In this document: piece after piece, positions 986-54,997 of the stretch
How positions within the stretch are numbered: the first letter of the stretch is position 1
How the letters are laid out: each line of letters begins with the position of its first letter
Assembly: GCF_035084215.1 (NCBI RefSeq)
Contig: NC_090329.1
Location: 42,036,001 to 42,100,000 of the forward strand
Source of the DNA: Heptranchias perlo
Taxonomy: Eukaryota
DNA length: 64,000 nt
Direction of reading: 5' to 3'
Translations under genes and position numbers: made by a program
The notes under the pieces: generated by a model
Databases searched by the model: none
Told to the model about the DNA's origin: nothing
Seen by the model: the letters and a program-made list of their open reading frames with translations, nothing else

Positions 986-1049
986 TAGCATGCTCCGTGA
1001 ATTCAGATAAAGAGTCTTTAATTTTGACTTTAACCATTTTTTCCTGCTT

Positions 1050-2860
1050 TGACCTTACTTGTTTTTGCACTATTATTGGTAAACTCTCTCTCCCTTCCTG
1101 CCACACTCTGCTTATCTTTACCCAAGTCACTACACTGTTCTATTGTCTTAACTTTTCTCATTAGATTTCTAAATTGCCCCTCACCTGACCCCTCCCTCCC
1201 CTTTTTAGTTTAAAGCCCTATCTACAGCCTTAGTTATTCGATTCACCAGGACGCTGGTCCCAGCTCAGTTTAAGTGGAGCCTGCCCCATTGGAACAGTTC
1301 CCTCTTTCCCCAGTACTGGTGTCAGTGCTCCATGAATCGAAACCTTTGTCTCTCACACCACTCTTTGAGCCACGCATTTAACTCTGATCTCTTTGTCCCA
1401 AGGCCAATTTGCACGTGGCTCAGGCAGTAATTCAGAGATTATTACCTTTGGGGTTCTGCTTATTAATTTAGACCCTAGCTCCTCAAACTGTCTCAGCAGA
1501 ACCTCATTCTTAGTTTTACCTATGTAGTTGGTTCCTGCGTGGACCTTGACAACTGGATCCTCCTCCTCATGCTCCAAGTTCCTTTCCAGCCATGAGGAGA
1601 TGTCCTTAACCCTGGCACCAGACAGGCAACACATCCTTTGGGACTCTCGGTCGTGGCTGCAGAGAACAGTCTTTATCCCCCTGACTAAACTATCCCCTAC
1701 CACTACCATATTCCTTTTTACTCCCCCCACTTGAATGGCCCCCAGTACTACAGTGCTGTGGTCAGGTTGCCCATCCTCCCTGCAGTCTTTGATCTCATCC
1801 ATATAGGTAGCAGGTATCTCGTACCTGTTGGATAAGGTCAAGTGCTGGGTCCCCTTCCCTGCCCAACTCACAGTCATGCCCTTCTGCCCCTGACCACTGA
1901 ACGAGTCAAAACTACTACCTAATCTAGGTGACTGCCTCCTGGATCAAAGTGTCCAGGTAACTCTCCTCCTCCCAGATGCATCACAATATCTGCAGCTCAG
2001 ATTCCAACGCAACAATTCTGAGCTGAAATTCCTCGAGCCGCAGACACTTACTGCAGATATGATTGCCTGGGATCATGCTGCTCTCTACAAACTCCCATAT
2101 GCTGCAGTTACAACACACCACCTGCCCTGCCATTGCTTGTTGAACCAGAATTTATTTCCTTCATTAGAGCTTTTAATCTCTTGCTATTCTTAGTTTTATT
2201 AACTAATTAATCTAGTTTAAATTATTGATTTAAGCTGTTAGTTAAACCCTTGCCCTAACTTAGAGAGAAAAAAAACAGTAACACTCACCAACCATTCACC
2301 TACCTGCTGTCCTGTGATATCACACCTTGATCTTTTTCTCAGTCCCACTGAATTTATCCTGACAATTTATCACCTGCTCCAAGTGAGTTTAGGCCTTCGA
2401 TCCTCATCTTTTATTTACTTGCCTCTGCCACCCAGTCCTTGCCTTGACTGCTGTCAGAGCTCTTCCTGTCTTTTCACTGTCCTTCCCTCTCCCACCAAAT
2501 TCTCAAGTTTCTACTCTGTTCACAATGCACTCTGTGCTTCAGCAGATACCTTCGATTTTATACACCTTTTGAGAACAGCATTTGCATCTGCTCGATCAGC
2601 TTCCAGCTCACAGTAATTACCCTCTATTCAGACAATCACTTACAGCTAATTGATTGTTAACTGTTAACTGCCACTGACTTGCAGTTTCTGTTAACTGCTA
2701 CCTAACTTGCAGTGTCTTTTAAAGTTTTAAAGTTCCATATTAATTTTTAAACTAAATTTGAATTTCAATTCACCCACTACTTTAACAGAGTTTCCCCTCT
2801 CAGCAAATTCTCAAGTTTCCACTCTGTTTGCAATGCACTCCGTTCGTTCTGTGCTTCATC
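1050..2860 (-). mobile_element. CR1 LINE 5' portion (5'UTR and degenerate ORF1)
   Basis: Contains the ORF1 relic. The putative 5'UTR has a direct repeat (~2491-2540 vs ~2795-2860). Boundaries are approximate. Confidence 0.7.
1353..2133 (-). pseudogene. CR1 ORF1p relic: CxxC..CxxC zinc finger/leucine zipper plus SGNH/GDSL esterase domain
   Basis: From ATG 2133: MAGQVVCCNCSIWEF...HICSKCLRLEEFQLRIVALESELQIL*. Downstream frame: LSNRYE...VVVGDSLVRGI...CCLSGARVKDI...VHAGTN, the typical vertebrate CR1 ORF1 esterase motifs. Confidence 0.85.
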
Positions 2861-2899
2861 TCTGGGCTATTATTACCTTGACAACTCTGGTGAGGTCAT

Positions 2900-3235
2900 T
2901 GAACTATTTTTGGCATTGCAGCCATGTCCTGGGAACTAAGCTCCTGGCTTTGACCTCCTCAACAACCTCTTCGCCGTTGCCTCAGCCCATCTGCTGCTGA
3001 AAACCTCATCCATGCTTTTGTTACCTCCAGGCTCAACTATTCCAATGCTCTCCTGGCTGGCCTCCCATCTTCCACTCTCTGTAAATTTGAGCTCATTCAA
3101 AGCTCTGCTGCTCATACCCCGACTCGCACCAAATCCCGTTCACCCATCTCCCCTGTGCTCGCTGACCTACATTGGCTTCCAGTCCAGCAACGCCTCAAAT
3201 TTAAAATTCTTATCCCTGTGTTCAAATCCCTCCCT
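2900..3235 (+). mobile_element. L2 LINE fragment
   Basis: Homologous to ~52850-53120 (ETLIHAF/LDYSNALL/LHWLP-type region). Confidence 0.8.
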
Positions 3236-3949: not shown

Positions 3950-4506
3950 TTTTTTTATCATTCTTTGGGATGTGGGTGTCGCTGGCAAGGCTGGCATTTA
4001 TTGCCCATCCCTAGTTGCCCTGAGTGAGGGTAGTTAAGAGTCAATCTCGTGGTGTTGAACTGGAGAAACATAGGGGGTACTTTTAACTGTTGGCGTTTGT
4101 GTAAAATGGGAGATATCAGATTGGCCGCCCATTATACACCCTTCCCGATTTTCCGTTCCGATAACTTCAAAGGAAAGGAAAATAAGGAAAAGTGGATGAT
4201 GGGTGGCCAATCTGATATTGCTTATTTACACTATCGGCCAAAGTTAAAATGCCCCCATATAGGCCATACTGGGTAAGGTCAGCAGGTTTCCTTCCCTAAA
4301 GCACATTAGTGAACAGTTGGGTTTTTATGACAATTCAATGGCTTCATGGTCAGTTTTACTGATACTGTTTTTTTATTTCCAGATTTTTAAAACTGAATTC
4401 ATATTCTTGAACTACCATGGTGGAATTTGAATTTACATTCTACTGGATGATTAGTCATGGCCTTTAGATGACTAGACCAGTGACATAACTACTATACAAC
4501 CATACC
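3950..4506 (-). mobile_element. tRNA-headed SINE-like element with the Zenon-like LINE 3' tail (interrupted by a MITE)
   Basis: 3965-4021 matches the LINE 3' end at 42790-42843. 4260-4500 matches 6490-6710. Degenerate A/B boxes followed by CCA on the minus strand. Confidence 0.75.
4073..4256. mobile_element. Palindromic Harbinger-type MITE
   Basis: Ends GGGGGTACTTTTAAC / GTTAAAATGCCCCC, with long internal inverted arms. 3-bp TSD ATA/ATA; an empty-site analogue (cacatatagg) lies at ~6496. Confidence 0.85.
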
Positions 4507-4514
4507 CGATATGT

Positions 4515-6710
4515 TCTACTTTTTGTGGAGAGGATATTCTTGGGCAATTTTCGACATTGTCAGGTAAATGCCAGTGTTGTAGCTGTACTGGAATAGCTTA
4601 GTTAGAAGCACAGCTAGTTCTTGAGCACAGGTCTTCAGCACTACAGTTGGAATATTGTCGGGGCCTGTAGCTTTTACTGTGTTCAGTGCACTCAGCCGTT
4701 TAAGAACATAAGAACTAGGAGCAGGAGTAGGCCAATCGGCCCCTCGAGCCTGCTCCGCCATTCAATAAGATCATGGCTGATCTGATCCTAACCTCAAATC
4801 TAAATTCATGTCCAATTTCCTGCCCGCTCCCCGTAACCCCTAATTCCCTTTACTTCTAGGGAACTGTCTATTTCTGTTTTAAATTTATTTAATGATGTAG
4901 CTTCCACAGCTTCCTGGGGCAGCAAATTCCACAGACCTACTACCCTCTGAGTGAAGAAGTTTCTCCTCATCTCAGTTTTGAAAGAGCAGCCCCTTATTCT
5001 AAGATTATGCCCCCTAGTTCTAGTTTCACCCATCCTTGGATGCTCAGTTTTGAGCTGCTAGATCTGTTCCTAATCTATCCCACTTAGCACAGTGGTAGTG
5101 CTATCCTTTGATGTCACGTGGAGTGAATCAAATTGGCAAAAGGCTGACATCTGTGATGGTGAGGTCCTCAGGAGGAGGCCGAGAAGGATCATCCACTCGG
5201 CATTGCTGGCTGAAAATGGTTGAGAATACTTCAGCCTTGACTTTTGCACTCATGTGCTGGGCTCCACCATCATTGAGGATGGGGAGTTTCATGGGGCCTC
5301 CTCCTCTTGTTAGTTGCTTAATTGTCCACCACCATTCACGAGTGGATGTGGCAGAACTTTGACTTGATCCATTAGTTGTGGGATCGCTTAACACTGTCTA
5401 TAATATGTTGTTTCTGCTGTTTAGCATCGCATGTAGTCCTGTATTATACCTTCACCAGGTTGGCATCTCATTTTCAGGTACGCCTGATGTTACTCTCGGC
5501 ATGCTCTTCTGCATTCCTCATTGAACCAGGGTTGGTCATCTGGCTTCATGATAATGGAGGATTAAGGGATATAACTGGCCATGAGGTTACAGATTGTGTT
5601 GGAATAAAATTCTGCTGTAGGTAATGGCCCACAGTGCCTCATGGATGCTCAGTTTTGAGCTGCTAGATCTGTTCCTAATCTATCCCACTTAGCACAGTGG
5701 TAGTGCTATATGATACGTTGGAGGGTGTCCTCAGTGTGAAGATGGGACTGGTCTCCATAAGGACCAAGAGGTGGTCACTCCTACCAACGCTGTCATGAAG
5801 TGACGCATTTGCGACAGGTAGATTGGTGAGGACGAGGCCAAGGAGGTTAATCCCTCGTGTTGGTTCTCTCACCACATGCTGCAAGCCCCAATCTGGCAAC
5901 TATGTCCTTCAGGACTCGGCCAGCTTGGTCAGTGGTGGTACTACCGATTTATTATTGGTGATGGACATGGAAGTCCCCACCCAGAGTACATTCTTTTGCC
6001 CTTGCTACTCTCAGTGCTTCCACCAAGTGATGTTCAACATGGAGGAGTACTGACCCATCAGCTGAGGGATGGCAGCATGTGGTAATCAGCAGGAGGTTTC
6101 CTTACCCATGGTTGACCTGAAGCCATGAGACTTCATTGGTCTGGAGTCAATGTTGAGGACTTCCAGGGCCACTCATCACAACTGTGCCTCCAACTCTGAT
6201 GGGTCTCTCCTGCTGATAGGACTGGACATACCCCTGGATGGTGATGGAGGAGTGTGGTCATTGGCTGATAGGTATGATTCTACAAGTCTAGCAGCTGTTC
6301 CAACTTTGGCAGAAGTGTCCTGATGTTAGTAAAGAGGACTTTGCAGGATCAACTGTGCTGAGTGTGCCCTTGTCATGTCCTGATTCAGTGATTAAATTGC
6401 AGCCAAGTGGTCAGTCCATTCTTTTTTTATTCTTTCTAGCGGTATGAGTTACTTGCTATGCCATTTCGGAGGGCAGTTGGTGTGGGATTGGAGTCACATA
6501 TAGGGCAGACCTGGTAAGGATGGCAGATTTCCTTCCCTAAAGGGTATTAATGAGCCAATATGGGTTTTTATGATAATCCGTCAACTTTGTGGTCACTTTT
6601 ACTAATGCCAGCTTTTTATTTCCAGATTTTTTAAACAGAATTCAAATTCTCCAACTACTATGGTGGGATTTTAACTTGTCTTCCCTGGATTACTAGTCCA
6701 GTAACATAAC
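4515..6710 (-). mobile_element. Older Zenon-like LINE: tRNA-like 5' head, APE endonuclease and start of RT; interrupted by a CR1 at 4701-5036
   Basis: Homologous to 44290-45650 (LGLVLTNLPVANASLHDSVGRSDH; GPDNIPTVVLKTCA). The last ~15 bp of the head are displaced to ~7637-7650 by the 6711 element. Confidence 0.85.
4701..5036 (-). mobile_element. 5'-truncated CR1 (HER1-like) 3' end
   Basis: Translation TRGHNLRIRGCSFKTEMRRNFFTQRVVGLWNLLP. TTCTTATG-type octamer tail. Confidence 0.9.
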
Positions 6711-7636
6711 GACCCAGAAATTGCTGGTGCGATGCATCTTGCAGCGAGCGCTATGAATGGGAATTCTTACCTCACCCTTAAGATCGTATTATTTTTAAAG
6801 CGCCAAATGCTGGAAATGTGAAATGATAACGGTGCGGTGATGTCAAAGGAGCATCTGGAACCTTCTGAACGTTGGGTCCAATGGTCTATCTCTTTAACTA
6901 ATAAAATTTAAGGATAGAGAAAGAAACAGAGCGAACGTTGGAGAAGGGTAAATGAGAGTCCAATTAGCTAGAATTCTACTAGTAAAGGACACTTAAATCT
7001 GTCTGCCAGACGCATGTGAGAGGTGATACTGCTGTCAGGAGAGTCTGCAGTTCATCCATTCCATTTCCTAAACGAAGCAAAGAAATGGTAATGGTGGAGG
7101 GAATTCTAATTTAAAAGGAAGTGGAAGGGAAGGGCTACATCACCATAAATCAATCCTGCCGTGGAAGTTTAGAAATCAGAGAGGAATTTAATCTAAGAAA
7201 CAGAAATAAAGAGAAGGAATGAAAAAGATTGGATTAAGAGAGAGAGAATAAAGAGACAGAAAGGAAAAGTAAGAAAAAAATTTAAAATTTATAAAAACCT
7301 CTAGCAACAATTTATTACATGCATGAGTGAGACTCCATAATTTTAATTGTTCCTTTTCTGGGCCTCCAAGTGGTTTGTCAGGACTATAAATCATGTCATT
7401 AACAGTGTCCTTACGACATGAATTACCAGCCGTAAATGGCTGCAGATGAGTTTAATTTGTATTAATGGCATGAATCCAGCAATTTCATGACAAAACAGTG
7501 AGGAGGCTTATGGTGAGATGGTAAATTTTTTTTGGTTTGGTGTATTTCTTCTTCGCCACAAATTGCTGGGTTTTTTACACACTAATAACGGCGAGTGCTG
7601 TGAACTCGCCATTGTTTTTCCAGCAATTTCTGGGCC
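6711..7636. mobile_element. Non-autonomous Harbinger-type element
   Basis: TIRs GACCCAGAAATTGCTGG / CCAGCAATTTCTGGGCC; TSD AAC/AAC; homologous along its length to 26009-26570. Confidence 0.85.
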
Positions 7637-8046: not shown

Positions 8047-8263
8047 GAATTCTACTAGTAAAGGACACTTAAAACTGTCTGCCAGACACGCGTGAGAAGT
8101 GATACTGCTGTCAGGAGAGTCTGCAGTTCATCCATTCCATTTCCTAAGCAAAGAAATGGTAATGGTGGAGGGAATTCTAATTAAAAAGGAAGTGGAAGGG
8201 AAGGGCTACATCACCATAAATCAATCCTGCCATAGAAGTTTAGAAGTCAGGGAGGAATTTAAT
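8047..8263 (+). repeat. ~220-bp segment duplicated in direct orientation at 6971-7192
   Basis: The two segments align with few substitutions and small indels. Confidence 0.95.
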
Positions 8264-18040: not shown

Positions 18041-18814
18041 GAACCTATTGTAATTTAAGCACATCACTTAAATGTAACTCATTTCGAAATGTTCATTTGT
18101 GGAAAGTGGCGAAAAAATCCCGAAATGTGAAAGTGTTAAACAAAAAATCAGGTTGAGTTTCATTTGTTTCCATCTTTTCTTACAATGTTCTTCACCAATG
18201 TATGTACAAGGAAATAGGAAAAGGCTGAAAAAAATGACAATGATCTGAGAGCAGTACAGACAAAATTGCCCCATTAATACCGCCGCAGCAGCAAGCAAGC
18301 AGTGGAGGAATGGAAAGGAAATAAACATATTTTTGACAAATTGAGCTTTGTTGAATGAGACAAAATTAGAATGGCTACAACTACCATCAATTAAACTACC
18401 ATTAATACAAATAGCCCGGAATTGAGCTGGATCCATGATTGATGTATGAACCGATTGTGGTTACAGGCAAATGACTATGTAATGGATCAGTTCACAGTTA
18501 TTAGCATTTTTTTGAACAAATGTTCTTAGATAAGATGTATTGTGGAACTGGAACCCTTTGTAAGTTAAGTCTTTTTGAACAAAACTTCTATAAAGGTACA
18601 ACCAACATTTTTCCACTGGTATTATTATTGCTAATTTTGTAAAACTTCTAATAATACTTGCATTTATATAGTGCCGATTTTTGTCTCACTACTGCCCCCT
18701 GACGCCTAAAAATGGGGCGGTAGCGGGACCAAAATTGCAAAAGAAAATGAACCAGTGACTTACTACTAGATGTCCACGCACTCCGACTTTGGGGCAGACC
18801 TTGGTTTAGACCAA

Positions 18815-19010
18815 GGCCAAGGCCTCATTGACTGTACACACATCACCCTGTGGGTTCCTTCACATGACCCCACTGCCTTTATGAATTACAAGGGTTTCCA
18901 CTCCGTAAATGTGCAACTGGTGTATGATCACCAGCAGCTCATCATGCTGGTCTGTGCCCGCTTTCTTGGCAGCTGCCATGATGTTTTCCTCTTGCGTCAA
19001 TCCTCTGTCT
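18815..19010 (+). pseudogene. HARBI1-like transposase catalytic-core fragment
   Basis: QGLIDCTHITL...FMNYKGFHSVNVQLVYDH...ARFLGSCHDVFLLRQS. Confidence 0.85.
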
Positions 19011-19480
19011 CACCCACAGGCAGGCATCACCTTGACCACATCGCATTGATCCAACCTATGACAATGAAGCACTTCCTCAACATTACAATGTAATCGACAC
19101 ACATTATATGCTCAGGTCCTGAGGTGAGGATTAAACCACCTCAGACATGCAGACACATGGCAGATGCAATATAATGCAGATAAGTGTGAAGTGACATGGA
19201 GAGGCAGTACAATCTAAATGGTACTATTTTGAGGGGGTGCAAGAACAGAGGGACCAGGGGGTGCATATTCACAAATCTTTGAAGGTGGCAAGGGAAGTTA
19301 ATAAGACAGTTAAGAAAGAGTATGGGATATTTGCTTTGTAAATAAGGGCATTGAATACATAAACAAGGAAGTCATGCTAAACCTTTACAAATCACTGATT
19401 AGGACTCAGTTGGAGTACTGTGTACAATTCAGGGCACCACACTTTAGGAAGGATGTCAAGGCCTTGGAGAGGGTACAGAG

Positions 19481-21110
19481 GAACTGGTCACGCCTCTAGC
19501 CAAACTGTTCCAGTACAGCTACAGCACTGGCATCTACCCGACAATGTGGAAAATTGCCCAGGTATGTCCTGTCCACAAAAAGCAGGACAAATCCAATCTG
19601 GCCAATTACCACCCCATTAGTCTACTCTCAATCATCAGCAAAGTGATGGAAGGTATCGTCGACAGTGCTATCAAGTGCCACTTACTCACCAATAACCTGC
19701 TCACTGATGCTGAGTTTGGGTTCCGCCAGGACCACTCGGCTCCAGACCTCATTACAGCCTTGGTCCAAACATGAACAAAAAAGCTGAATTCCAGACGTGA
19801 GGTGAGAGTGACTGCCCTTGACATCAAGGCAGCATTTGACCGAGTGTGGCACCAAGGAGCCCTAGTAAAATTGAAGTCAATGGGAATCAGGGGGAAAACT
19901 CTCCAGTGGCTGGAGTCATACCGAGCACGAAGGAAGATGGTCGTGGTTGTTGGAGGCCAATCATCTCAGCCCCAGGACATTGCTGCAGAAGTTCCTCAGG
20001 GCGGTGTCATCAATGACCTTCCCTCCATCTTAAGGTCAGAAATAGGGATGTTCACTGATGATTGCACAGTGTTCAGTTCCATTCGCAACCCCTCAGATAA
20101 TGAAGCTGTCCGAGCCAAATGAACAAGACCTGGACAGCATCCAGGCTTGGGTTGATAAGTGGCAAGTAACATTCGCACCAGACAAGTGCCAGGCAATGAC
20201 CATCTCCAACAAGAGAGAGTCTAACCACCTACCCTTGACATTCAACGGCATTACCATCGCCGAATCCCCCGCCATCAACATCCTGGGGGTCACCATTGAC
20301 CAGAAACTTAACTGGACCAGCCACATAAATATTATGGCTACAAGAGCAGGTCAGAGGCTGGGTATTCTGCATTGAGTGACTCACCTCCTGACTCCCCAAA
20401 GCCTTTCCATCATCTACAAGGTACAAGTCAGGAGTGTGATGGAATACTCTCCACTTGCTTGGATGAGTGCAGCTCCAACAACGCTCAAGAAGCTCGACAC
20501 CATCCAGGACAAAGCAGCCCACTTGATTGACACCCCATCCACCACCCTACACATTCACTCCCTTCACCACCGGCGCACCGTAGCTGCAGTGTGTACCATC
20601 CACAGGATGCACTGCAGCAACTTACCAAGGCTTCTTCGACAGCACCTCCCAAACCCACAACATCTACCACCTAGAAGGACAAGGGCAGCAGTCACATGGG
20701 AACAACACCACCTGTACGTTCCCCTCCAAGCCACACACCATCCCGACTTGGAAATAAATCACCGTTCCTTCATCGTCACTGGGTCAAAATCCTGGAACTT
20801 CCTACCTAACAGCATTGTGGGAGAACCTTCACCACATGGACTGCAGCAGTTCAAGAAGGCGGCTCACCACCAACTTCTCAAGGGCTGATGTGGAGATGCC
20901 GGTGATGGACTGGGGTTGACAATTGTAAACAATTTTACAACACCAAGTTATAGTCCAGCAATTTTATTTTAAATTCACAAGCTTGTGAATTTAAAATAAA
21001 ATTGCTGGACTATAACTTGGTGTTGTAAAATTGTTCTCAAGGGCTATTAGGGATGGGCAATAAATGCTGGCCTCGCCAGCAACGCCCACATCTCATGATC
21101 GAATAAAAAC
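19481..21110 (+). mobile_element. 5'-truncated Zenon-like LINE (RT through 3' tail)
   Basis: WKIAQVCPVHKK, PISLLSIISKVME, ALDIKAAFDRVWHQG, FTDD, YKVQVRSVMEY. Candidate TSD ACAGAGGA/ACAAAGGA. Confidence 0.92.
20887..21035. mobile_element. Short insertion containing a perfect 108-bp palindrome (putative Penelope-like element terminus)
   Basis: 20928-20981 is the exact reverse complement of 20982-21035. Flanking direct repeat TTCTCAAGGGCT at 20875-20886 and 21034-21045. The Penelope assignment is inference. Confidence 0.7.
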
Positions 21111-26008: not shown

Positions 26009-26570
26009 GGCCCAGATTTTGCTGGAATGGGGCATCTCGTGACATGCCCTCTTAGTTACAGCTCTTCCCTCAACCTTCAGCTCAAAATTTTTTTGCCCCG
26101 TAACTTGCTGGAAGTGCGAGATGATAAAGGCACGGCGAGGACAACGGGGTATCTGGGACATTAGTGAATGACAGGACCGACAGTCTATCTCCTTAATCAA
26201 TGAGATTTAAGGATTGAGAAAGAAACAGAGGAATGATGGAGAAGGAGGGTGAATTAGAGTCAAATCATGTACAGAGAGAGAAATAATGAGAGAGAGAAAG
26301 GGAGAAAAGAGACAGAAAGGAAAAGTAAGATTTAAAAAAAATTTTTAACTATTAAAACTATTAAAAATATTTAACAACAATTTACTACCAGTGGGAATGA
26401 GACTCCACGGTTTAAATTGTTTCCTTTCTGGGATGGAGAGGTTGAGCGGCATTGCAGGAACATAAATCTCCTCACTAAAAAGGTACTTTCACAAATTGCT
26501 GGTCGATTTACACACTAATAACGGCGAGCGCCATTAAACTCATCATTATTTTGGCAGCAAATTCTGAGCC
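26009..26570. mobile_element. Non-autonomous Harbinger-type element (same family as 6711-7636)
   Basis: TIRs GGCCCAGATTTTGCTG / CAGCAAATTCTGAGCC; TSD ATT/ATT. Confidence 0.85.
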
Positions 26571-26873
26571 ATTGTCTTTATATTTTGTTGGATCCTTTGA
26601 GGAAGCAAGTACTTACTATTTCTCGGTTTAGTTACATATAATATATATATATATATCCTGGGCAACTTTTTGAGTGACCTCCAGCGATTCCTTTCAGATA
26701 CAAATGGTGGTGCGTATGTGGCATGTGCTCCATCCATTTATGAGATGACTCACCTCTGGACACTTGAAAGTGGCTCTGTAAAGAAAAGGGATCACTGCTT
26801 CCTAAGGTCACCTACATTGTATACTATGATATTGGTGACGCCGAACTTAAATTTCTAACTTTGGGACTCACTG

Positions 26874-28371: not shown

Positions 28372-29847
28372 TTTAAAGGAAGAGAGAGAGGTAGAGAGGT
28401 GGAGAGATTTAGGAAGGGAATTCCAGAGCTTAGGGTCTAGGCAGCTGATGGCATGGCCGCCAATGGTGGAGCGATTAAAATTGGGGATGCGCAAGAGGCA
28501 AGAATTGGAGGAGCGCAGAGATCTCAGAGGGTTGTAGGGCTGGAGGAGGTTACAGGTAGGGAGGGGCAAGATCATGGAGGGAATAGAAAACAAGGATGAG
28601 AATTTTAAAATCGAGGCGTTCCCGGACAGGAAGCCAATGTAGGTCAGCAAGCATAGAAAAGCAGTATATGATTTAAATGGAGAGAGATTGCAGAACTCTG
28701 AGGTACAGAGGGATCTGGGTGTCCGAGTACATGAATCACAAAATGTTAGTATGCAGGTACAGCAAGTGATTAGGAAGGCAAATGGAATGTTGTAAGTTAT
28801 TGCAAGGGGAATGGAATATAAAAGTAGAGATGTTTTGCTACAGTTGTACAGGGCATTGGTGAGACCACATCTAGAATACTGTGTGCAGTTTTGGTCTCCT
28901 TATTTAAGAAAGGACATAATTGCTTTAGAGGCGGTTCAGAGAAGGTTCATTCGACTGATTCCTGGGATGAGGGGGTTATCTTATGAGGAAAGGTTGGACA
29001 AGTTGGACCTGTATACATTGAAGTTCAGAAGAATGAGAGGTGATCTTATTGAAACATATAAGATCCTGAGGGGACTAGAAGGGGTAGATGCTGAGAGGAT
29101 GTTTCCCCTTGTGGGAGAGACTAGAACTAGGGGCCACAGTTTAAAAATAAGGGGTCTCCCATTTAAGACGGAGATGAGGAGAATTTTTTTCTCTCAAAGG
29201 GTCGTGAGTCTGTGGAACTTCCTTCCCCAGAGAGTGGTGGAGGCAGGGTCATTGAATATTTTTAAGGCTGAGTTAGATAGATTCCTGATTAACAAGGGAG
29301 TCAAAGGTTATAGTAGGTAGACGGGAAAGTAGGGTTGAGGTCACAATCAGATCAGCCATGATCTTATCAAATGGCAGAGCAGACTCGAGGGGCCGAATGG
29401 CTCTTAATTCATATGTTTGTATGTTCGTACGTATATATGGGGTGATGGGTAAACAGGACTTGGTATGAGTTAGAATATGGACAGCAGAGTTTTGGATGAG
29501 CTCCAGTTCATAGAGGGTGGAAGATGGGAGGCCGGCCAGGAGAGCATTGGAATAGTCAAGTCCAGAGGTAACAAAGGCATGGATGAGGGTTTCAGCAGCA
29601 GATGGGCTGAGGCAGGGGCGGAGATGGGCGATGTTACAGAGGTGAAAGTAGGCTGCCTTGGTGATGGAGTGAACATGTGGTCGGAAGCTCATGTCAGGGT
29701 CAAATAGGACGCCAAGGTTGCAAACGATCTGGTTCAGCCTCAGGCAGTGGCCAGGGAGAGGGATGGAATCGATGGCTAGGGAACGGAATTTGTGGCAGGG
29801 ACTGAAGACAATGGCTTCGGGCTTCCCAGTATTTAGTTGGAGGAAAA
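28372..29847 (-). mobile_element. L2 LINE fragment interrupted by a CR1 (28657-29430)
   Basis: SFRPHVHSITKAAYFHLCNIAHLRPCLSPSAAETLIHAFVTSGLDYSNALL and KLWNSLP; homologous to 52630-53330. Confidence 0.9.
28657..29430 (+). mobile_element. CR1 (HER1-like) 3' portion
   Basis: ORF 28811-29320: LYRALVRPHLEYCVQFWSP...TRGHSLKI...FFSQRVVSLWN. TTCGTATG-type tail. Confidence 0.95.
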
Positions 29848-29999
29848 ATTTAGGTGTGATGAGCGCACTAGTGGTTGGAGTCGTGCTAATAACGGAGGCC
29901 AGATTGGAAAATCTACTACACTGAATACAATAAAAATATTAGACGGCTTTGTAATTACAACCAATAATTTTATCCCCCTACACGCTCATATACCTTTAA

Positions 30000-30405: not shown

Positions 30406-31516
30406 TTAAGTGGCTCAATCCCTTTAAATTTACCCATCACCCATTGTGAACAGCTATTTAAGTAGCCCTTTAAGTGCTGCTTAAACACGATTTCCTGCTC
30501 CTCTGGCAAGCTCCCAATGTGATGCCCAAAATGGAGCCAGGAGTTCACCCACACTATGCAAATGAAGCTGACCCTAAGATTTAGGTGTGATGAGCATGCT
30601 AACGGTTGGAGTCATGCTAATAATGGAGGCCGGATTGGAAAATCTACTACCCCGAATCTAAACAGCACTGTTTCGTTATCAGAATACTGACGCTTTTGAG
30701 AAATCCAAAGAAAGTCCAAGTTACAAACAGTAAATCCAAGGCATAGAAATTGGAAAGGTTTTAGCCCCTAACAGTTCTTTGTTTATTCGGATATTACTGC
30801 GATTGAAATAATTTTAATAAAACTCCAGAGACCCTTTTTGGTTTTTTTAACAAAACATCCAACATTTTTAAAGAGGCTCATTTAGGTGTGTTTACATGAT
30901 AGACTATTTTAAAAACTGCAGAGGACATTCAGTACTTGGAAGTGTGTTGAGAACATAATACATGAAAGCTTAATTCATGTACCTTATATCTTCCTAAGAC
31001 TAAGCTTGTGTGAACTCTACATCTTCGTAAGATTTCCGTTCATTCTAAATCATTTGTTTACACTGTACAACTGCATGACTCACTCCATCAGCCATCTGTC
31101 CGTCGGCAGAGCATGTACATGTACTGTAATGTATTGTATTGTCAGCACCGTGGATGGATCAAGAACAATAGGCGAGGAAGGTAAGTGGTATTAGGTACAG
31201 GGCAGCTTCTAATCAGCTTTTGTCAACATCATCAGAATTTAGCCTACTTACCCGAGTTCTGCCCAGTTTTATTCTTACTGCTGCCTAGTGAAAATGCAAT
31301 TATGTAAGATGAGGATTATATAAATAGTAGAAAGGTCAAGGCTATTCAATACTTTAAAAAAAAATTGAACCCAATTTAAAGAAAAAACAAGTGCAAAAAG
31401 TGCAGGCAAACCTCAAGCATGTATTGCAACTTGTTTTTGGGGAACCACAGAACGATTATCTTCCCCTTTCCAGCCTAGTAATACTGAGATTAATTGTTGC
31501 ACCTCTCAAAGCACTA

Positions 31517-32149: not shown

Positions 32150-33660
32150 CTGTCACTCATTCCATGCTGGACTGTGATTTTACAAATCCTTCATATATTG
32201 CTACAGGGATATCAGTGCTGCACTTCTGCAGAGTCTCTGCTATATCATGGACGGTGCTCTGAACATTCTCAAAGCATTGCATAAAGTGTTTTTGCTCTAT
32301 AGGCAGGCATCTAGTGTGCAGGGGGATATCTAGGCCTGGGCCTCTCTTTTGCTGATACCTGTTCCTCTACTGCCACCTCTATTTGCCCCTTCTGAGTTGT
32401 GCTGAGTGCTTCACCAATTGCTCCCTCCTAACCCTGACTAAGTGAACTCTCTGAGGTGGATGTATCTAAGCTGGCGCTTGTGCGTACAGGAGTGTGCAAT
32501 TGGTGCTTGTAGAGTAAACCAGCTTCCTGATGCCCTCCAGTGCCAGGTACAACATCTTGGAGGACCCCGGTGAAAGGTAAAAGGAAAACTATGTTGCGTG
32601 TATGAAATAGCTGGGCACAGAGGGGTAAAAATTCAGTTTCTCCATTGAGAGCACAAAATTGTAAAATTTCACACCTCAATTCCATTTTCTCTGGCCATTA
32701 AAATTCAATAAAAATCGAGAGCTAATGGTCCACTATTTTGCAATAACTAGAAATTCTACTCCAGAATTCCCAGACTAATACACTGATTACCGAACTACTG
32801 TTGTGCAGAATGAGCCTGGATCTTAGTGAGTGAGTGAGTTTCAAGGAGGTCCAAGAAGAAGTGAAGCAGAACACTTGCCTCATTGAACTGTCACAAAGCG
32901 GCCAAACTCTCTCTCACACATACTCTCATTCACCGCCACTCCAACTATTTGCAGGGCTGCCTTCGCATGTCAAGTCTCTAGAGGTTGGTAGGGCTGCCAC
33001 CAGTCCTTGGTATCTCCTTTAAAGCCAGACAATAGATTCAGGTGCTGGCATTTGGAGGAGCAGAGAGTGCCAGCCCAGTGTCCAGCCTATGCCTCACCTT
33101 GTGTGAGTGAATGACAAAGAAACATGCAACTAATTTCAGGTCCCAGTTTCAATTAGTACTACAGTATGCAAACATTAGGTGTGATGTTGGAAGCATGTTT
33201 AGATGTCAGCCACAAAGTTTGCCCAGCAGCGTTAGGAACATAAAAGTATAGCTGTGAAAGATATGAAAGATTGTCATTGCTTCCTGGCCCCTTTGCTGAT
33301 GCTGCACCATGCTTGGGGGCACAGCACTTACAGCATGCAGACTATGGCTAGACACTATATTCGGACTGGCAAAGTGTGGACACACTTACCTTGGCACTCT
33401 TCCTCAGGTCAGAGAACTGCTCATCCCATGACCTATGGCCGTAGGAGACAGCACTGACTTTATGAGCCACTTTCTGCCATGTTTGCTGCACATTGTGATG
33501 CAGAGGAGGGCTCCCTTCAGCCTCAAATGTGCCTATTCCTTTGTTGCACCTCCTACAGCAGACCATCTAAACTTTCTTCATCAAAGGGGACATTGCTGGC
33601 CCAATTCCTTTGTCCAATCTTCCATTGCTGGCAGATTTTATGGAGCCAATAGCTTGAAGT
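32150..33660 (-). pseudogene. Highly decayed Harbinger Myb/SANT gene region
   Basis: TWQKVAHKVSAVSYGHRSWDEQFSDLRKSAK followed by donor gtaagt near 33389. The downstream extent is a guess. Confidence 0.5.
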
Positions 33661-34205
33661 GAGAGATGTGGCCTGTTAAGTGCCACCACTCTTCAGATAG
33701 TTCATTCTCTATCAATTATAGTGGTCCCTCTGCGCTGGGAAAATGCACAAGGAACATATTCAAATAATATGCATTACTTGACCTCGCTGAATCCAGCATG
33801 GCCATCGTCTTGCTCCAGTAGTGCAGAGCTTCAGAAGAATGCAGCGGTCCTGGCACCATCTCAGCTTGGAACGCTGAACTGGCTCTATCTGTATTGCTTA
33901 GGATGAGCAGTTCTCTGAGCTGAGGAAGAGTGCCAAGGTAAGTGTGTCCACACTTTGCCAGTCCAAATATAGTGTCTAGCCATAGACTGCATGCTGTAAG
34001 TGCTGTGCCCCCAAGCATGGTGCAGCATCAGCAAAGGGGCCAGGAAGCAATGACAATCTTTCATATCTTTCACAGCTATACTTTTATGTTCCTAACGCTG
34101 CCGGGCAAACTTTGTGGCTGACATCTAAACACGCTCCTAATATCACACCTAATGTTTGCATGCTGTAGTACTAATTGAAACTGGGACCTGAAATTAGTTG
34201 CATGT
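33122..34205. repeat. 305-bp inverted repeat (33122-33426 / 33901-34205) with a 474-bp spacer
   Basis: About 9 mismatches by manual comparison. Near-identical ORFs on opposite strands (MKDMKDCHCFLAPLL...). Confidence 0.95.
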
Positions 34206-35834: not shown

Positions 35835-36684
35835 ACACTTTTGCGAAAAGTCTGAACAGTGACATTCTGAAATGCCATTCCGGGACACTATAAATGAACA
35901 GCCCTCTTTCCTATTTATGATGTTACTGAACGTGAACTTTATGATTTCGCTATAGGGAGAGTTCCAGACAGAACAGGGCCAATATATCCTTTGCTCAATG
36001 CTCCATGTGCACCAGTTCCTGAAGAAAATGGGTTGAGACCTGTAACACCAGGTCTCCATCCCAGTGGTACGTGATGTGCATTCATGGCTGGGAGGAGCGG
36101 GCGACAGAAACTCCTGCTTGAAACAGGCCAGAGGTTCATTATCATACTTAAATAACACGTGAACCCTTTTTTGACATCTCCCATGTCTTTTTACACCCTT
36201 TACGCCAGGTCGATAGCAATTGGAAACAATGTCCCCTTTACCTGGGTAGATAGATTGAAAGGGCCAAATTCATGGTTCTTTTAGCAGTTTTGAAGCCATT
36301 TCTGTTTTCTTTTCTCCTGGGACTTAGCTTCTCATGTGCTTTATAGTTTTCCAAGGAAGCTGAGATGACACTAAAATTATATGTATATATGTGTGTCTCA
36401 TAGGTGAAAAGTCTGTTTTCATCATTGCCAAATCAAAGCAAGTTCTATACACCAACCTAGATTTCCTGATCAGGATTGGTAAAAGTGGGCAGAGATTGTA
36501 ATGACAGATTTCTTCTCCAGTTCCTGTGAGTGGGGAACACAGGCTTTGGAACTGCCCGTCTTAAACAGGTGGCAACTTTATTTGTCATTTCCCAATATTG
36601 GGGTGTACATATCGTTGCTAGATCACACGAAATGGCACCCAGAGTTGCTAGGTAATAGTGAATATATGGAAGACCATGTGTTTT

Positions 36685-36817
36685 TGTTAGTTAAGGGTAT
36701 TAAGTATCACGGAACCAAGGTGGGTAGATGGAGTTAAGATACAGATCAGCCATGATCTAATTGAATGGCGGAACAGGCTTGAGGGGCTGAATGGCCTACA
36801 CCTGTTCCTATGTTCCT
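36685..36817 (+). mobile_element. Very short CR1 3' end
   Basis: AGATCAGCCATGATCT...GGCTGAATGGCCTAC...TTCCTATGTTCCTA tail. Confidence 0.85.
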
Positions 36818-39264
36818 AAAGGATACAGTAATGTTAAAGTAAGTGTATTTTAGTCATTTTTAAAAAAAGTTTTTAATTTTTCCTCACAAACCATCATAGC
36901 AGGAAATAGCAATTTTTTTTTAGAACAGGCTGGCCTTTCTGGCTTGAGTTTGTCTCTTCCTTTAAGTTAGCATTTCCCAGTACTCAAAACTGCAGAAAAC
37001 CTCACGTCTCAGTCTGTCCTTTCTCCGACAATCTTCAGACTTTTAAAAGCCATGATTCACATCACCTAGTCACGAGCTCTTGATTTAAGTCAACTCTCCT
37101 ACTTTTTTCACCTTCACTTAGGTTTGGCAATAGAAAATCTAAGCCTGGCCAGAACTGAGTCAACAATAACTTTTTAATAGGTTATTTGGCATGTTTACAA
37201 AGAAAAAAACATTTAGTAGATTACATGCACCGAGCAGATCCAGTGTCTATAACTTGGAAGATAAATGATTCTACAAGTGCATCATTTGATTAGATTCTGA
37301 TTCCCAAATGTTCCTGCTGTATTAAGGCATTATAACAATGTAATAACCAGACCTACAATTGAACCAGTGGTGATTTATTGAAACAGAATGGTAAATGTCC
37401 CCAAGGTGAAAACAGGATGTCGGTTACTTTACTTTCCACCATATTATGATTGTCTGTGTTTTTACTTTCATTTCAAATTTCCTTATGTTTAATGATTATA
37501 GTTGAGAAAACATCTTGTTAATGTTATTTTCTATTTGCAGCAATGTCCCTACGTTTTCTATTTTATGCAGCTTTTCTACTACTTTTCAAATTCAACTTCT
37601 AAACCTCATTTGAGTCAGCACTCTTCCAAGGAGAGGATTTTTCTAAGTAGTGCTCACATTTCTGAATTAGTAATGAATGATAAAATTTGCAATTTATATT
37701 CAGTCCCAGTTTTCACATTAGGTAACGATTTTGGTTATGGTAACACAATATATTACTTTATTTGAATTTTTATTGTAATTTAATGCAAACACTCACACAA
37801 CTTGAACATAAACGAGATTATAAGCCATCTGGCTGTCTTACTGGTGTTTGAGTCCTATTACAAGGAATGCACTCACATTATCAATATTACTTGTAGCAGA
37901 GATGCTGGTGCTGCAGACGAAAGCTTGGATCCATACTGCCACCTACTGTCCATTATTGTCAATGGTCCTGTACCATGGGAGGTGGTAAAATTCTTTGAAC
38001 ACTAATGCACTTCAGAAATCTATGTACAGTGGAAATTTATAGTGAGAAAAGCTATTGAACCAAGCGTTTCAAAGAAATTCCTTCAATTTACTTTTCAGGG
38101 AGCAATGAAAGCTGTGCAAGGATCCTCAACAGCTGGTAAAATCTAGAATGATAGCAAATGAAAGTTACGTTGCCGCAGTAAAATCAAGGGGATTAAATTA
38201 TTTCATAACTAATAATGAGAGCAATATACATCCAGTTTACATCGGTTTCTGACTTATGTTTCAGTCATGGTAGATTTCTGTTATTTTTATAATTTACTTT
38301 AAATCCTGGATATCTGAAATAAAAATAGAAAATGCTGGAAAGGCACAGCAGGTCTGTCAGGATCAGAACTCAGATACTGACAACCCTGTTGTGTATCTCC
38401 GATGCCTCAGATATTTTTATAAAATCCTGTGTATATACACTTTGAATTGGCATTTTTTGTAGTTGTTAAAATCCAGCACTGAGGACCAGGTATGGAATGT
38501 ACATAACCCTGCCAAGGTCATTGAGTGTGTTGTAATACATGTCAGGCATGAACTCTGTTTCTGTGAGGATGTCGGAGAGAGAGACTAATCCAATAACCTA
38601 ATTTTCCTGGTTGGGAGTAAATGATTGAAATCGTTGGCACACAGTTGGGCTCAGTAGTGATAATGGGAACTATTCAGCTAAATAAGAATATTACAATTCA
38701 TAACTATGTACCTGTCTTCATTATTTGAAGACTTCCTAATTCATATGACTTTGGATTAACTACAATGGCCCAATGTTTGAGTGTATACGCAAAACATTAC
38801 AATCCCATTCTGCACTTGCACGCCACCATTTTCCGTGTTTCATAATCACATTGCGAGGTATTTTTGTTGAGGATCATACCAGATTACAACCTCAAGTACA
38901 TGAATTGTGCTAATTTAATTCATTCAATACCTAAATCTAGTCTATAGGCACCAGAAGGTCAATAGGTTATCTGACACCCTCTCTGTGGGGAAGAAAGTGT
39001 CTATCCCACTTGGTACCTGTCAGCTGATACTGGAAACTTAAGTTTTACAGAGAATCACCGACATGAATCATCATTCTATTACTGTATTCCAATCCATATA
39101 CAAAAAAAAGCAAACCTGGGAGATCACCAGCCACATTAACACCAAGTCCTTCACCTATAGTAAGTCAGGAAGAGATTCCATGATATCAGAAGAAAGCAAA
39201 ACAAAATATAACTTACAATCGATAGGGAAGCAAAACCACAGATGATCAAAGTGTTGATTATTAA

Positions 39265-42774: not shown

Positions 42775-45652
42775 TTTTTTTTAGTTCACGGGATGTGGGC
42801 GTCGCTGGCGAGGCCAGCATTTATTGCCCATCCCTAATTGCCCTTGAGAAGGTGGTGGTGAGCCGCCTTCTTGAACCGCTGCAGTCCGTGTGGTGATGGT
42901 TCTCCCACAGTGCTGTTAGGAAGGGAGTTCCAAGATTTTGACCCAGCGACAATGAAGGAACGGCGATATATTTCCAAGTCGGGATGGTGTGTGACTTGGA
43001 GGGGAACGTGCAGGTGGTGGTGTTCCCATATGCCTGCTGCTCTTGTCCTTCTAGATGGTAGAGGTCGCGGGTTTGGGAGGTGCTGTCGAAGAAGCCTTGG
43101 CGAGTTGCTGCAGTGCATCCTGTGGATGGTACACACTGCAGCCACAGTGTGCCGGTGGTGAAGGGAGTGAATGTTTAGGGTGGTGGATGGGGTGCCAATC
43201 AAGCGGGCTGCTTTATCTTGGATGGTGTCGAGCTTCTTGAGTGTTGTTGGAGCTGCACTCATCCAAGCAAGTGGAGAGTATTCCATCACACTCCTGACTT
43301 GTGCTTTGTAGATGGTGGAAAGGCTTTGGGGCGTCAGGAGGTGAGTCACTCGCCGCAGAATACCCAGCCTCTGACCTGCTCTCGTAGCCACAGTATTTAT
43401 ATGGCTTGTCCAGTTAAGTTTCTGGTCAATGGTGACCCCCCCCAGGATGTTGATGGTAGGGGATTCGGCGATCGTAATGCCGTTGAATGTCAAGGGGAGG
43501 TGGTTAGACTCTCTCTTGTTGGAGATGGTCATTGCCTGGCACTTACCTGGCACGAATGTTATTTGCCACTTATGAGCCCAAGCCTGGATGTTGTCCAGGT
43601 CGCTGCATGCGGGCTCGGACTGCTTCATTATTTGAGGGGTTGCGAATGGAACTGAACACTGTGCAGTCATCAGCGAACATCCCCATTTCTGACCTTATGA
43701 TTGAGGGAAGGTCATTGACGAAGCAGCTGAAGATGGTTGGGCCTAGGACACTGCCCTGAGGAACTCCTGCAGCAATGTTCTGGGGCTGAGATGATTGGCC
43801 TCCAACAACCACTACCATCTACATTGTCGGGTAGATGCCAGTGTTGTAGCTGTACTGGAACAGCTTGGCTAGAGGCGCAGCTAGTTCTGGAGCACAAGTC
43901 TTCAGCACTATAGCCAGGATGTTGTTGGGGCCCATAGCCTTTGCTGTATTCAGGTATGACTCCAGCCACTGGAGAGTTTTCCCCCTGATTCCCATTGACT
44001 TCAATTTTACTAGAGCTCCTTGGTGCCACACTCGGTCAAATGCTGCCTTGATGTCAAGGGCAGTCACTCTCACCTCACCTCTGGAATTCAGCTCTTTTGT
44101 CCATGTTTGGACCAAGGCTGTAATGAGGTCTGGAGCCGAGTGGTCCTGGCGGAACCCAAACTGAGCATCGGTGAGCAGGTTATTGGTGAGTAAGTGCCAC
44201 TTGATAGCACTGTCGACGACACCTTCCATCACTTTGCTGATGATTGAGAGTAGACTAATGGGGCGGTAATTGGCCGGATTGGATTTGTCCTGCTTTTTGT
44301 GGACAGGACATACATGGGCAATTTTCCACATTGTCGGGTAGATGCCAGTGTTGTAGCTGTACTGGAACAGCTTGGCTAGAGGCGCAGCTAGTTCTGGAGC
44401 ACAAGTCTTCAGCACTACAGCCGGGATGTTGTCGGGGCCCATAGCCTTTGTTGTATCCAGTGCACTCAGCCGTTTCTTAATATCACGTGGAGTGAATCGA
44501 ATTGGCCGAAGGCTGGCTTCCGTGATGGTGGGGATATCGGGAGGAGGCCAAGATGGATCATCCACTCGGCACTTCTGGCTGAAGATGGTTGCAAATGCTT
44601 TAGCCTTGTCTTTTGCACTCACGTGCTGGACTCCGCCGTCATTGAGGATGGGGATGTTTCCAGAGCCTCCTCCTCCCGTTGGTTGTTTAATTGTCTACCA
44701 CCATTCACGACTGGATGTGGCAGGACTGCAGAGCTGTGATCTGATCCGTTGGTTGTGGAATCGCTTAGCTCTGTCTATAGGATGTTACTTCCACTGTTTA
44801 GCATGCATGTAGTCCTGAGTTGTAGCTTCACCAGTTTGGCACCTCATTTTTAGGTATGCCTGGTGCTGCTCCTGGCATGCTCTCCTACACTCCTCATTGA
44901 ACCAGGGTTGATCCCCTGGCTTGTTGGTAATGGTAGAGTGAGGAATATGCCGGGCCATGAGGTTACAGATTGTGCAGGAATACAATTCTGCTGCTGCTGA
45001 TGGCCCACAGCGCCTCATGGATGCCCAGTTTTGAGCTGCTAGATCTGTTCTGAATCTATCTCATTTAGCACGGTGGTAGTGCCACACAACACGTTGGATA
45101 GTGTCCTCAGTGCGAAGACGTGACTTCATCTCCACGAGGACTGGGCGGTGGTCACTCCTACCAATACTGTCATGGACAGATGCATTTGCGACAGGTAGAT
45201 TGGTGAGGACGAGGTCAAGTAAGTTTTTCCCTCGTGTTGGTTCGCTCACCACCTGCCGCAGGCCCAGTCTGGCAGTTATGTCCTTCAGGACTCGGCCAGC
45301 TCGGTCAGTAGTGGTGCTACTGAGCCACTCTTGGTGATGGACATTGAAGTCCCCCACCCAGAGTACATTTTGCGCCCTTGCTACCCTCAGTGCTTCCTCC
45401 AAGTGGTGCTCAACATGGAGGAGGACTGATTCATCAGCTGAGGGAGGGCGGTAGGTGGTAATCAGATGAAGGTTTCCTTGCCCATGTTTGACCTGATGCC
45501 ATGAGATTTCATGGGGTCCAGAGTCAATGTTGAGGACTCCCAGGGCCACTCCCTCCTGACTGTATATCACTGTACCGCCACCTCTGGTGGGCCTGTCCTG
45601 CCGGTGGGACAGGACATACCCAGGGATGGTGATGGAAGAGTCTGGGACGTTG
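42775..45652 (-). mobile_element. Zenon-like CR1-clade LINE, 5'-truncated within the endonuclease; ORF disrupted
   Basis: APE motifs (RGGGTVIY, YRPPS, VGDFN, PTRGKNLLDLVLTN, SDH); RT motifs (RPISLL, AQFGFR, LDIKAAFDRVWH, GVPQGSVLGP, FADD); C-terminus YKAQVRSVMEY; A-rich tail. Confidence 0.95.
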
Positions 45653-54552: not shown

Positions 54553-54997
54553 AACATACGAACATATGAATTAGGAGCAGGAGTAGGCCATTCGGCCCCT
54601 CGAGCCTGCTCTGCCATTTGATAAGATTATGGCTGACCTAAACCATAGCATACAAGGCTACAGACCAAATGCTGGAATATGGGATTAGAGTAGACAGGGC
54701 TGATGGCCGGCGCGGACACGATGGGCCGAAGGGCCTCTATCCGTGCTGTATAACTCTATGACTCTATAGTCTGGAACTCACTGTCTGATTGTGACCTCAG
54801 CCCTAATTTCCCGTCTACCTACTATAACCTTTGACTCCCTTGTTAATCAGGAATATACCTAACTCAGCCTTAAAAATATTCAATGACCCTGCCTCCACCG
54901 TTCTCTGGGGAAGGGAGTTCCACAGACTCACGACCCTCTGAGAGAAAAAATTTCTCCTCATCTCCGTCTTAAATGGGAGACCCCTTATTTTTAAATG
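54553..54997 (-). mobile_element. CR1 (HER1-like) 3' end carrying an internal opposite-strand CR1 3'-end insertion
   Basis: LKIRGLPFKTEMRRNFFSQRVVSLWNSLP; near-identical to 29140-29430; insertion at ~54641-54785. Confidence 0.9.

Follow-up and report, generated by a model that had tools for sequence, protein, structure and literature searches.

An exact copy of flanking DNA at the 5′ junction of a CR1 retrocopy in Heptranchias perlo

Within the 64,000-nucleotide stretch of Heptranchias perlo DNA analyzed here (the window), a 5′-truncated CR1 retrocopy is separated from its resumed target by a 68-bp patch that is an exact, same-strand copy of DNA in the CR1's own 5′ flank, and that probably arose by DNA-templated synthesis while the CR1 5′ end was being joined to the chromosome. 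The patch is a known kind of repair scar, the flank-derived 5′ extra nucleotides of LINEs, of which the reach to the donor is only a mildly unusual trait.

The target is an old LINE of the endonuclease-reverse transcriptase type that aligns in two pieces to a paralog at 44282-45645, whose ORFs match the Pfam families PF14529/PF03372 (Exo_endo_phos_2) and PF00078 (RVT_1). Between the two pieces lies a gap of 406 bp, so that the locus reads, from left to right, left target, minus-strand CR1 3′ fragment, (T)GGA overlap, patch, CCT, and right target (Table 1). The names CR1, for this fragment, and L2, for other pieces of the window, are putative and go by repeat motifs (for CR1, the C-terminal motifs). 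A Pfam scan of 4702-5040 returned no families; the ORF2 C-terminal motifs and short-repeat 3′ tail of this fragment recur in other pieces of the window.

Table 1. Coordinates of the features at the CR1 insertion
Feature	Position	Strand	Details
Host LINE (old, endonuclease-RT type), segment that follows the insertion in its own sense direction	4508..4701	-	85.6% to 44282-44475; tblastn to the window's own RT ORF
Young 5′-truncated CR1 3′ fragment (ORF2 C-terminus, 3′ UTR, short repeat tail)	4702..5040	-	stop-free frame 4809-5057; tblastn to other window CR1 pieces
Microhomology (T)GGA, 3-4 nt	5037..5040	.	common to CR1 family continuation and donor start
Patch	5037..5104	+	68 bp (about 64 nt excluding the microhomology), same-strand copy of 5642-5709
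Filler CCT, 3 nt	5105..5107	.	replaces the single C of the family empty site; paralog alignment, family contigs
Old host LINE, piece on the CR1 5′ flank, holding the donor	5108..6257	-	82.2% to 44477-45645
Donor	5642..5709	+	inside host LINE, 534-601 bp from the resumed target end; position collinear with paralog

Both edges of the patch could be defined by comparison with family members. CR1 family contigs in runs X5 and X6 have a loose-end consensus at 5034 and run past it with TGGA at 5037-5040, a CR1 paralog in the window (29085-29135) has GGA at the corresponding place, and the donor itself starts with TGGA; the last nucleotides of the CR1 fragment are therefore common to the patch over 3 to 4 nt, an overlap with a chance of 0.016 for at least 4 nt and about 0.05 for at least 3 nt (the latter by hand with the same formula). 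At the other edge, family contigs in run X1 have a lone C separating 4701 from 5108, so the insertion made no target-site duplication and lost at most 1 bp (0 to 1); none was found in the paralog alignment or the family contigs. The preliminary description had set the patch exactly between CR1 and host LINE, and the position stands, but the edges carry the CCT filler and the short CR1 overlap. No same-strand local template for the filler plus its flank was found within 4001-7000, a 7-mer on the opposite strand at 4168 and 6844 is at chance level, and the 4-nt TGAT that occurs both near the end of the donor and near the restart of the target is 3 nt out of register, and we gave it no weight. 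The 602-nt flank folds as DNA at −80.1 kcal/mol, a value computed without a shuffle control and not used as evidence.

Patch and donor agree at 68 of 68 positions at an offset of 605 bp, as first described, with 0 bases of extension on either side. Searching both strands of the window with up to 30 mismatches allowed to the 68-mer returned three sites only, at 5037 (0 mismatches), 5642 (0), and 45018 (8). By comparison, the longest direct exact match at most 2 kb apart was 12 to 15 bp in all 20 first-order Markov simulations of 64 kb. In the alignment to the paralog near 45 kb, the donor is collinear and the patch is not.

The patch had also been said to carry variants of the local copy that the younger family member near 45018-45085 lacks, and the wider family bears this out. 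At position 5675 the donor has a C, as does the patch at the corresponding position 5070, while T is read in 99.7% of the X1 family depth and 99.2 to 100% in three other runs (four of four runs); this is the only one of the eight donor-paralog differences among the rows listed (40 of 53). The presence of this near-private C in the patch makes a distant family copy an unlikely source. The 45-kb copy differs from the host LINE by 15.7% (179 of 1,143 aligned bases; 14 to 16% overall) and from its own peers by 3.0 to 5.1%, which identifies it as a younger family member. These all-copies comparisons were made on family contigs from sequencing runs, at least 90% alike.

By sequence divergence, the patch appears far younger than the host LINE and of an age compatible with the CR1. 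At 38 places in the X1 contigs, 32 of which are listed, at least 10% of the depth reads another letter. The listed places divide into 29 in the host and 3 over the 335 bp of the CR1; two of the latter differ as the majority, and the CR1 total is at most 9 of 335. Divergence of the CR1 from alike family contigs is thus 0.6 to 0.9%, with a ceiling of 2.7%, figures biased low for CR1 and host both by the use of contigs at least 90% alike. The probability of 0 differences in 68 bp is 0.44, 0.29, and 0.025 at CR1 divergences of 0.6, 0.9, and 2.7%, respectively, and 3e-6 at the host-like 9% per lineage. Because the CR1 is young, the host old, and the patch free of divergence, patch and CR1 fit a single event. 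The zero divergence also rules out an old rearrangement dating from the host LINE's own insertion. In addition, the target resumes within 1 bp of its stop, for which a later unrelated event would need a chance match. No empty or intermediate allele of the locus was seen; the empty-site joints are paralogs (depth 2603, versus 14 to 20 for unique pieces). Runs X5, X6, and X8, from other organisms (share 0.13 to 0.14), gave paralog matches only and no orthologous site. Together, the near-private C, zero divergence, young CR1, and target loss of 0 to 1 bp favor the original proposal that the patch was copied from neighboring DNA during integration.

Since the patch continues the CR1 plus strand with plus-strand 5642-5709, the template was the minus strand of the 5′ flank or RNA of that sense. 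With DNA as the template, target-primed reverse transcription would have started from 4701/4702 and the plus strand been made rightwards, while the right-hand end was resected or opened over about 600 nt. The 3′ end of the cDNA could then have paired by 3 to 4 nt at 5642-5645 and been extended by about 64 nt. Fixing the end at the donor would leave a 534-bp target-site deletion, so the cDNA end was presumably released, aborting that deletion, and then end-joined with short filler to the true end at 5108. A mirror route would give the same, indistinguishable product: here the end of the flank would move backwards, be extended over 5709 to 5642, and pair within the cDNA, which is trimmed.

The enzyme is not nameable from the sequence. 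Within the DNA-templated reading, our judgment favors a host repair polymerase, acting in a step like synthesis-dependent strand annealing (SDSA) or in annealing end-joining, at a little under even chances; ORF2p jumping onto DNA is a less likely candidate, and canonical polymerase theta trails it slightly. A host pathway is indicated because comparable direct copies of nearby DNA, with filler or a small deletion, such as 6971-7192, occur in the window without a retrocopy. The polymerase-theta-type end joining suggested in the preliminary description fits poorly in its textbook form, which according to PMC7165422 leaves scars of 3 to 30 bp, with first-round synthesis rarely above 10 bp and templates typically within 30 bp. 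Several points count against the DNA-templated reading as a whole. The donor is much farther away than the templates of human tumor L1 insertions (within 15 bp) or polymerase-theta scars (within about 30 bp), a minus-direction transcript of the locus would give the same patch orientation, no contig among those listed bridges the 5′ junction, the divergence figures are biased low, and the empty-site joints come from paralogs.

In one alternative the template was RNA: the CR1 reverse transcriptase would have moved onto a nascent transcript running through the old host LINE in the minus direction and copied about 64 nt of it, and the product would then have been joined. We consider this improbable, even though the patch has the orientation expected from reverse transcribing minus-strand RNA, a switch could reach 600 nt without long resection, and one L1 co-insertion of a local precursor mRNA is reported in 10.1101/2022.05.18.492429. 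Against it, no host-gene exon that would point to transcription was seen in the 144 of 261 low-repeat ORFs scanned (967-42559), where the sole Pfam pass was a piece of DDE transposase; the donor is confined to the 5′ flank, for which templating by DNA is on record; and nearby patches exist without any retrocopy. Among the runs listed, no RNA run had more than a small share, and these runs were left out of the evidence.

A somewhat smaller chance attaches to two separate origins, either a repair-mediated duplication closely preceding or following the arrival of the CR1 at this site, or capture of both CR1 and patch at a pre-existing break (endonuclease independent). Such a history would account for the missing target-site duplication, typically 3 to 5 bp in the CR1/L2 clades according to PMC4245944, and patch size and donor distance fit the duplications of Pace et al. 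2009, others of which occur in the window. It requires, however, either two events at one base or a break repaired by the very steps of the DNA-templated reading, and the CR1 3′ tail is intact, while the microhomology ties the CR1 directly to the donor start.

Misassembly of the locus is, on structural grounds, unlikely, and we rate it marginally below the two-origin history. The specific artifact would be a tandem merger of two haplotypes, one with an empty host LINE and one with the CR1 joined to 5642 across a 534-bp target deletion, for which 100% identity is what one would expect. Contig evidence comes mainly from run X1, possibly the source sample and thus not independent, which contains four exact pieces of the locus among those listed (4200-4297, 4572-4654, 4625-4727, and 6145-6500). 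One X1 contig extends over the 3′ junction but reaches only 26 letters into the CR1, short of the 31-letter rule, and none crosses the 5′ junction or covers 5037-5108 among the eight X1 pieces listed (there being 269,632 further pieces); the best runs contain only 0.58 of the sampled words. On the other side, the window has no N, the join at 5104-5108 with its filler offers an assembler no usable overlap, and no joint of 5036-5040 to 5642-5646 stands among the 15 joints listed (of which there are 411 more). The 3′ junction contig has a depth of 14.2, versus 16 to 19.6 for three unique exact pieces, weakly favoring full over half depth, and older, diverged copies of the same layout in the window could not be artifacts of this type. 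Finally, a source in another host-LINE family member elsewhere in the genome, copied as RNA or DNA and matching the neighbor by coincidence, is very improbable: the family is very abundant, its depth over the donor summing to more than 100,000, and about 0.3% of the X1 depth at 5675 is not T, above what two copies would give, but the sole other window copy (45018-45085) differs at 8 of 68 positions, the longest listed X5 pieces over 5624-5706, from other organisms, differ at 6 to 8 of about 80 bases, and the only known perfect match is 605 bp away.

Self-comparison of the window (at least 25 bp, at least 80% identity, within 5 kb) listed 11 pairs, 6 of them direct, and besides the patch three direct pairs look like older local captures over 0.5 to 1.1 kb. 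The largest is a 222-bp direct copy at 6971-7192 from 8047-8263 (93% identical, 1,076 bp away), which interrupts an element whose paralog at 26063-26571 is without it; with filler on both sides, a small deletion, and no retrocopy, it resembles a textbook repair-mediated duplication. A 136-bp direct copy at 43818-43953 from 44325-44460 (95.6% identical with 90 bp exact, 507 bp away) replaces about 11 bp in the RT region of the younger LINE. No diagnostic site for its local origin was found; it is about as old as its LINE copy and could reflect either a later patch left by repair or a jump and return along the RNA of the element itself. The third, a direct copy of about 80 bp at 29848-29926 versus 30579-30657 (87%, 731 bp), begins right at the 5′ end of an L2 piece on the minus strand and has the layout of the patch at an older age, its identity being near the L2's own 85% to its paralog; it is a candidate only, since any deletion also makes an apparent 5′ end.

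Of the two remaining direct pairs, one is formed by CR1 tails and the other, 53 bp long, lies at 2483 and 2792 in the probable 5′ UTR of a decayed 5′ part of a CR1-type element. This element, at about 990-2900 (minus strand), adjoins a host-family LINE at 986, has no Pfam match, and contains putative ORF1-like zinc-finger and esterase-like motifs. Other features of the window were noted alongside. A short insert at 20885-21035, inside a LINE 3′ end and flanked by a 12-bp near-identical direct repeat, ends in a perfect 108-bp palindrome (20928-21035) and looks like a foldback at a retrocopy 5′ end. The inverted pair 33122-33426 and 33901-34205 (305 bp, 97% identity, separated by about 475 bp) may be flanked by a 5-bp repeat and represents either a local duplication in inverted orientation or long terminal inverted repeats. 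At 54640-54783, a 125-bp CR1 3′ end nested in another CR1 is 97.6% like the CR1 end at 56846-56970, and the roughly 15 bases that follow its tail recur in the same CR1 near 56763, some 80 bp upstream of the fragment. An ORF piece at 18770-19090 (plus strand) matches DDE_Tnp_4 (PF13359, E 2.5e-12) and is a DNA-transposon remnant.

Counting LINE 5′ ends gives a limited measure of frequency. Local copies start within 2 bp of 2 of the 15 usable approximate ends, compared with 9 of 150 random 120-bp tiles in which a local match falls at any position, two long pairs accounting for most of these; the census began with 16 windows, of which the CR1 at 36682-36818 was dropped as set inside an element, and several others are alignment ends rather than proven junctions. 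Only 6971-7192 could pass the filters of Pace et al. 2009, and one such event per 64 kb at the highest density of that study has a probability of about 0.04, too thin on one event for an excess of local duplications to be claimed. Still, four such copies occur in 64 kb, two starting at LINE 5′ ends and all with the donor on the right-hand side. It is conceivable, but in our view doubtful, that a single long-reach pathway serves this genome at LINE 5′ junctions and ordinary breaks alike, copying 50 to 220 bp in direct orientation from 0.5 to 1.1 kb into the flank as aborted target-site deletions, at a density far above that reported for other vertebrates. Were this true genome-wide, retrotransposon junctions in this lineage would form a dated archive of resection lengths in the germline.

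Flank-templated LINE 5′ junctions are already in the literature (PMC4245944, PMC4760211), a precedent absent from the preliminary description. In the zebrafish elements ZfL2-1 and ZfL2-2 (Kajikawa 2012, as cited in PMC4245944, PMC4760211, and PMC2666801), 5′ extra nucleotides are templated from flanking DNA; these sources put extra nucleotides on about 40 to 50% of ZfL2-2 elements, a large share synthesized from flanking sequence, and PMC2666801 favors a template jump. The junction described here is alike in having extra sequence (5041-5107) between a truncated LINE 5′ end and the target at 5108, a flank match of 68/68, and microhomology of 3 to 4 nt, and L2 and CR1 are related clades; unlike ZfL2, the element is an endogenous CR1 of another lineage, and the donor lies 534 to 601 bp from the end. 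A search for flank-templated LINE junctions in sharks or cartilaginous fish found nothing relevant, most subscription journals lying outside it.

Human L1 offers a second comparison. In tumors, 22 templated cases occur among about 3,600 insertions, typically under 250 bp (10.1101/2024.08.27.596794), and PMC11702581 has three L1 templated-insertion cases in an experimental set, a later version arguing that L1-made ends are resected by up to 10 kb. Genomic DNA near the site is copied in, as at the CR1, and an SDSA-like model is proposed there, but L1 templates are close to the site and L1 target-site duplications long, neither of which is the case here. The templated insertions (TINS) of polymerase theta share the direct-repeat class, microhomology priming on the other resected end, and a second join; PMC7165422 gives direct orientation as the mark left when one end is extended on the other end after its resection. 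Unlike them, the CR1 patch has about 64 nt in one run from more than 530 bp away. Our reading is unchanged by PMC11371274 and PMC11724301, which report mainly inverted or foldback products, or by PMC13376730, on cancer rearrangements.

In length and distance, the patch is closer to repair-mediated duplications than to typical polymerase-theta scars. The study of Pace et al. 2009 (PMC2671141) found 824 such duplications in the human genome as inserts of at least 50 bp in interrupted TEs with a donor within 5 kb, and gives a median length of 147 bp, an apparent distance peak near 1.2 kb, microhomology of 2 to 9 nt, deletions of 1 to 15 nt, and filler; the "doublets" of Thomas et al., as cited there, are comparable. 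Here, too, an insert of over 50 bp without polyA has its donor between 50 bp and 5 kb away, with microhomology and 3-nt filler. In contrast to the cases of Pace et al., which are without a retrocopy and have single-copy donors, a CR1 shares the break and the donor belongs to a repeat family, and because the pipeline, as described there, removed nested insertions and multi-copy donors, this event would escape its count. It works like a repair-mediated duplication without being filed as one.

As a single event, one more flank-templated LINE 5′ junction carries little weight. Judging from it, the 5′ flank may open by about 600 nt during CR1 integration and still be kept, and donor distance and side across CR1 and L2 5′ ends genome-wide would bear on which enzyme and template finish LINE integration. 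Its main value is as a clean natural example bridging the 5′ extra nucleotides of LINEs and kilobase-range repair-mediated duplications.
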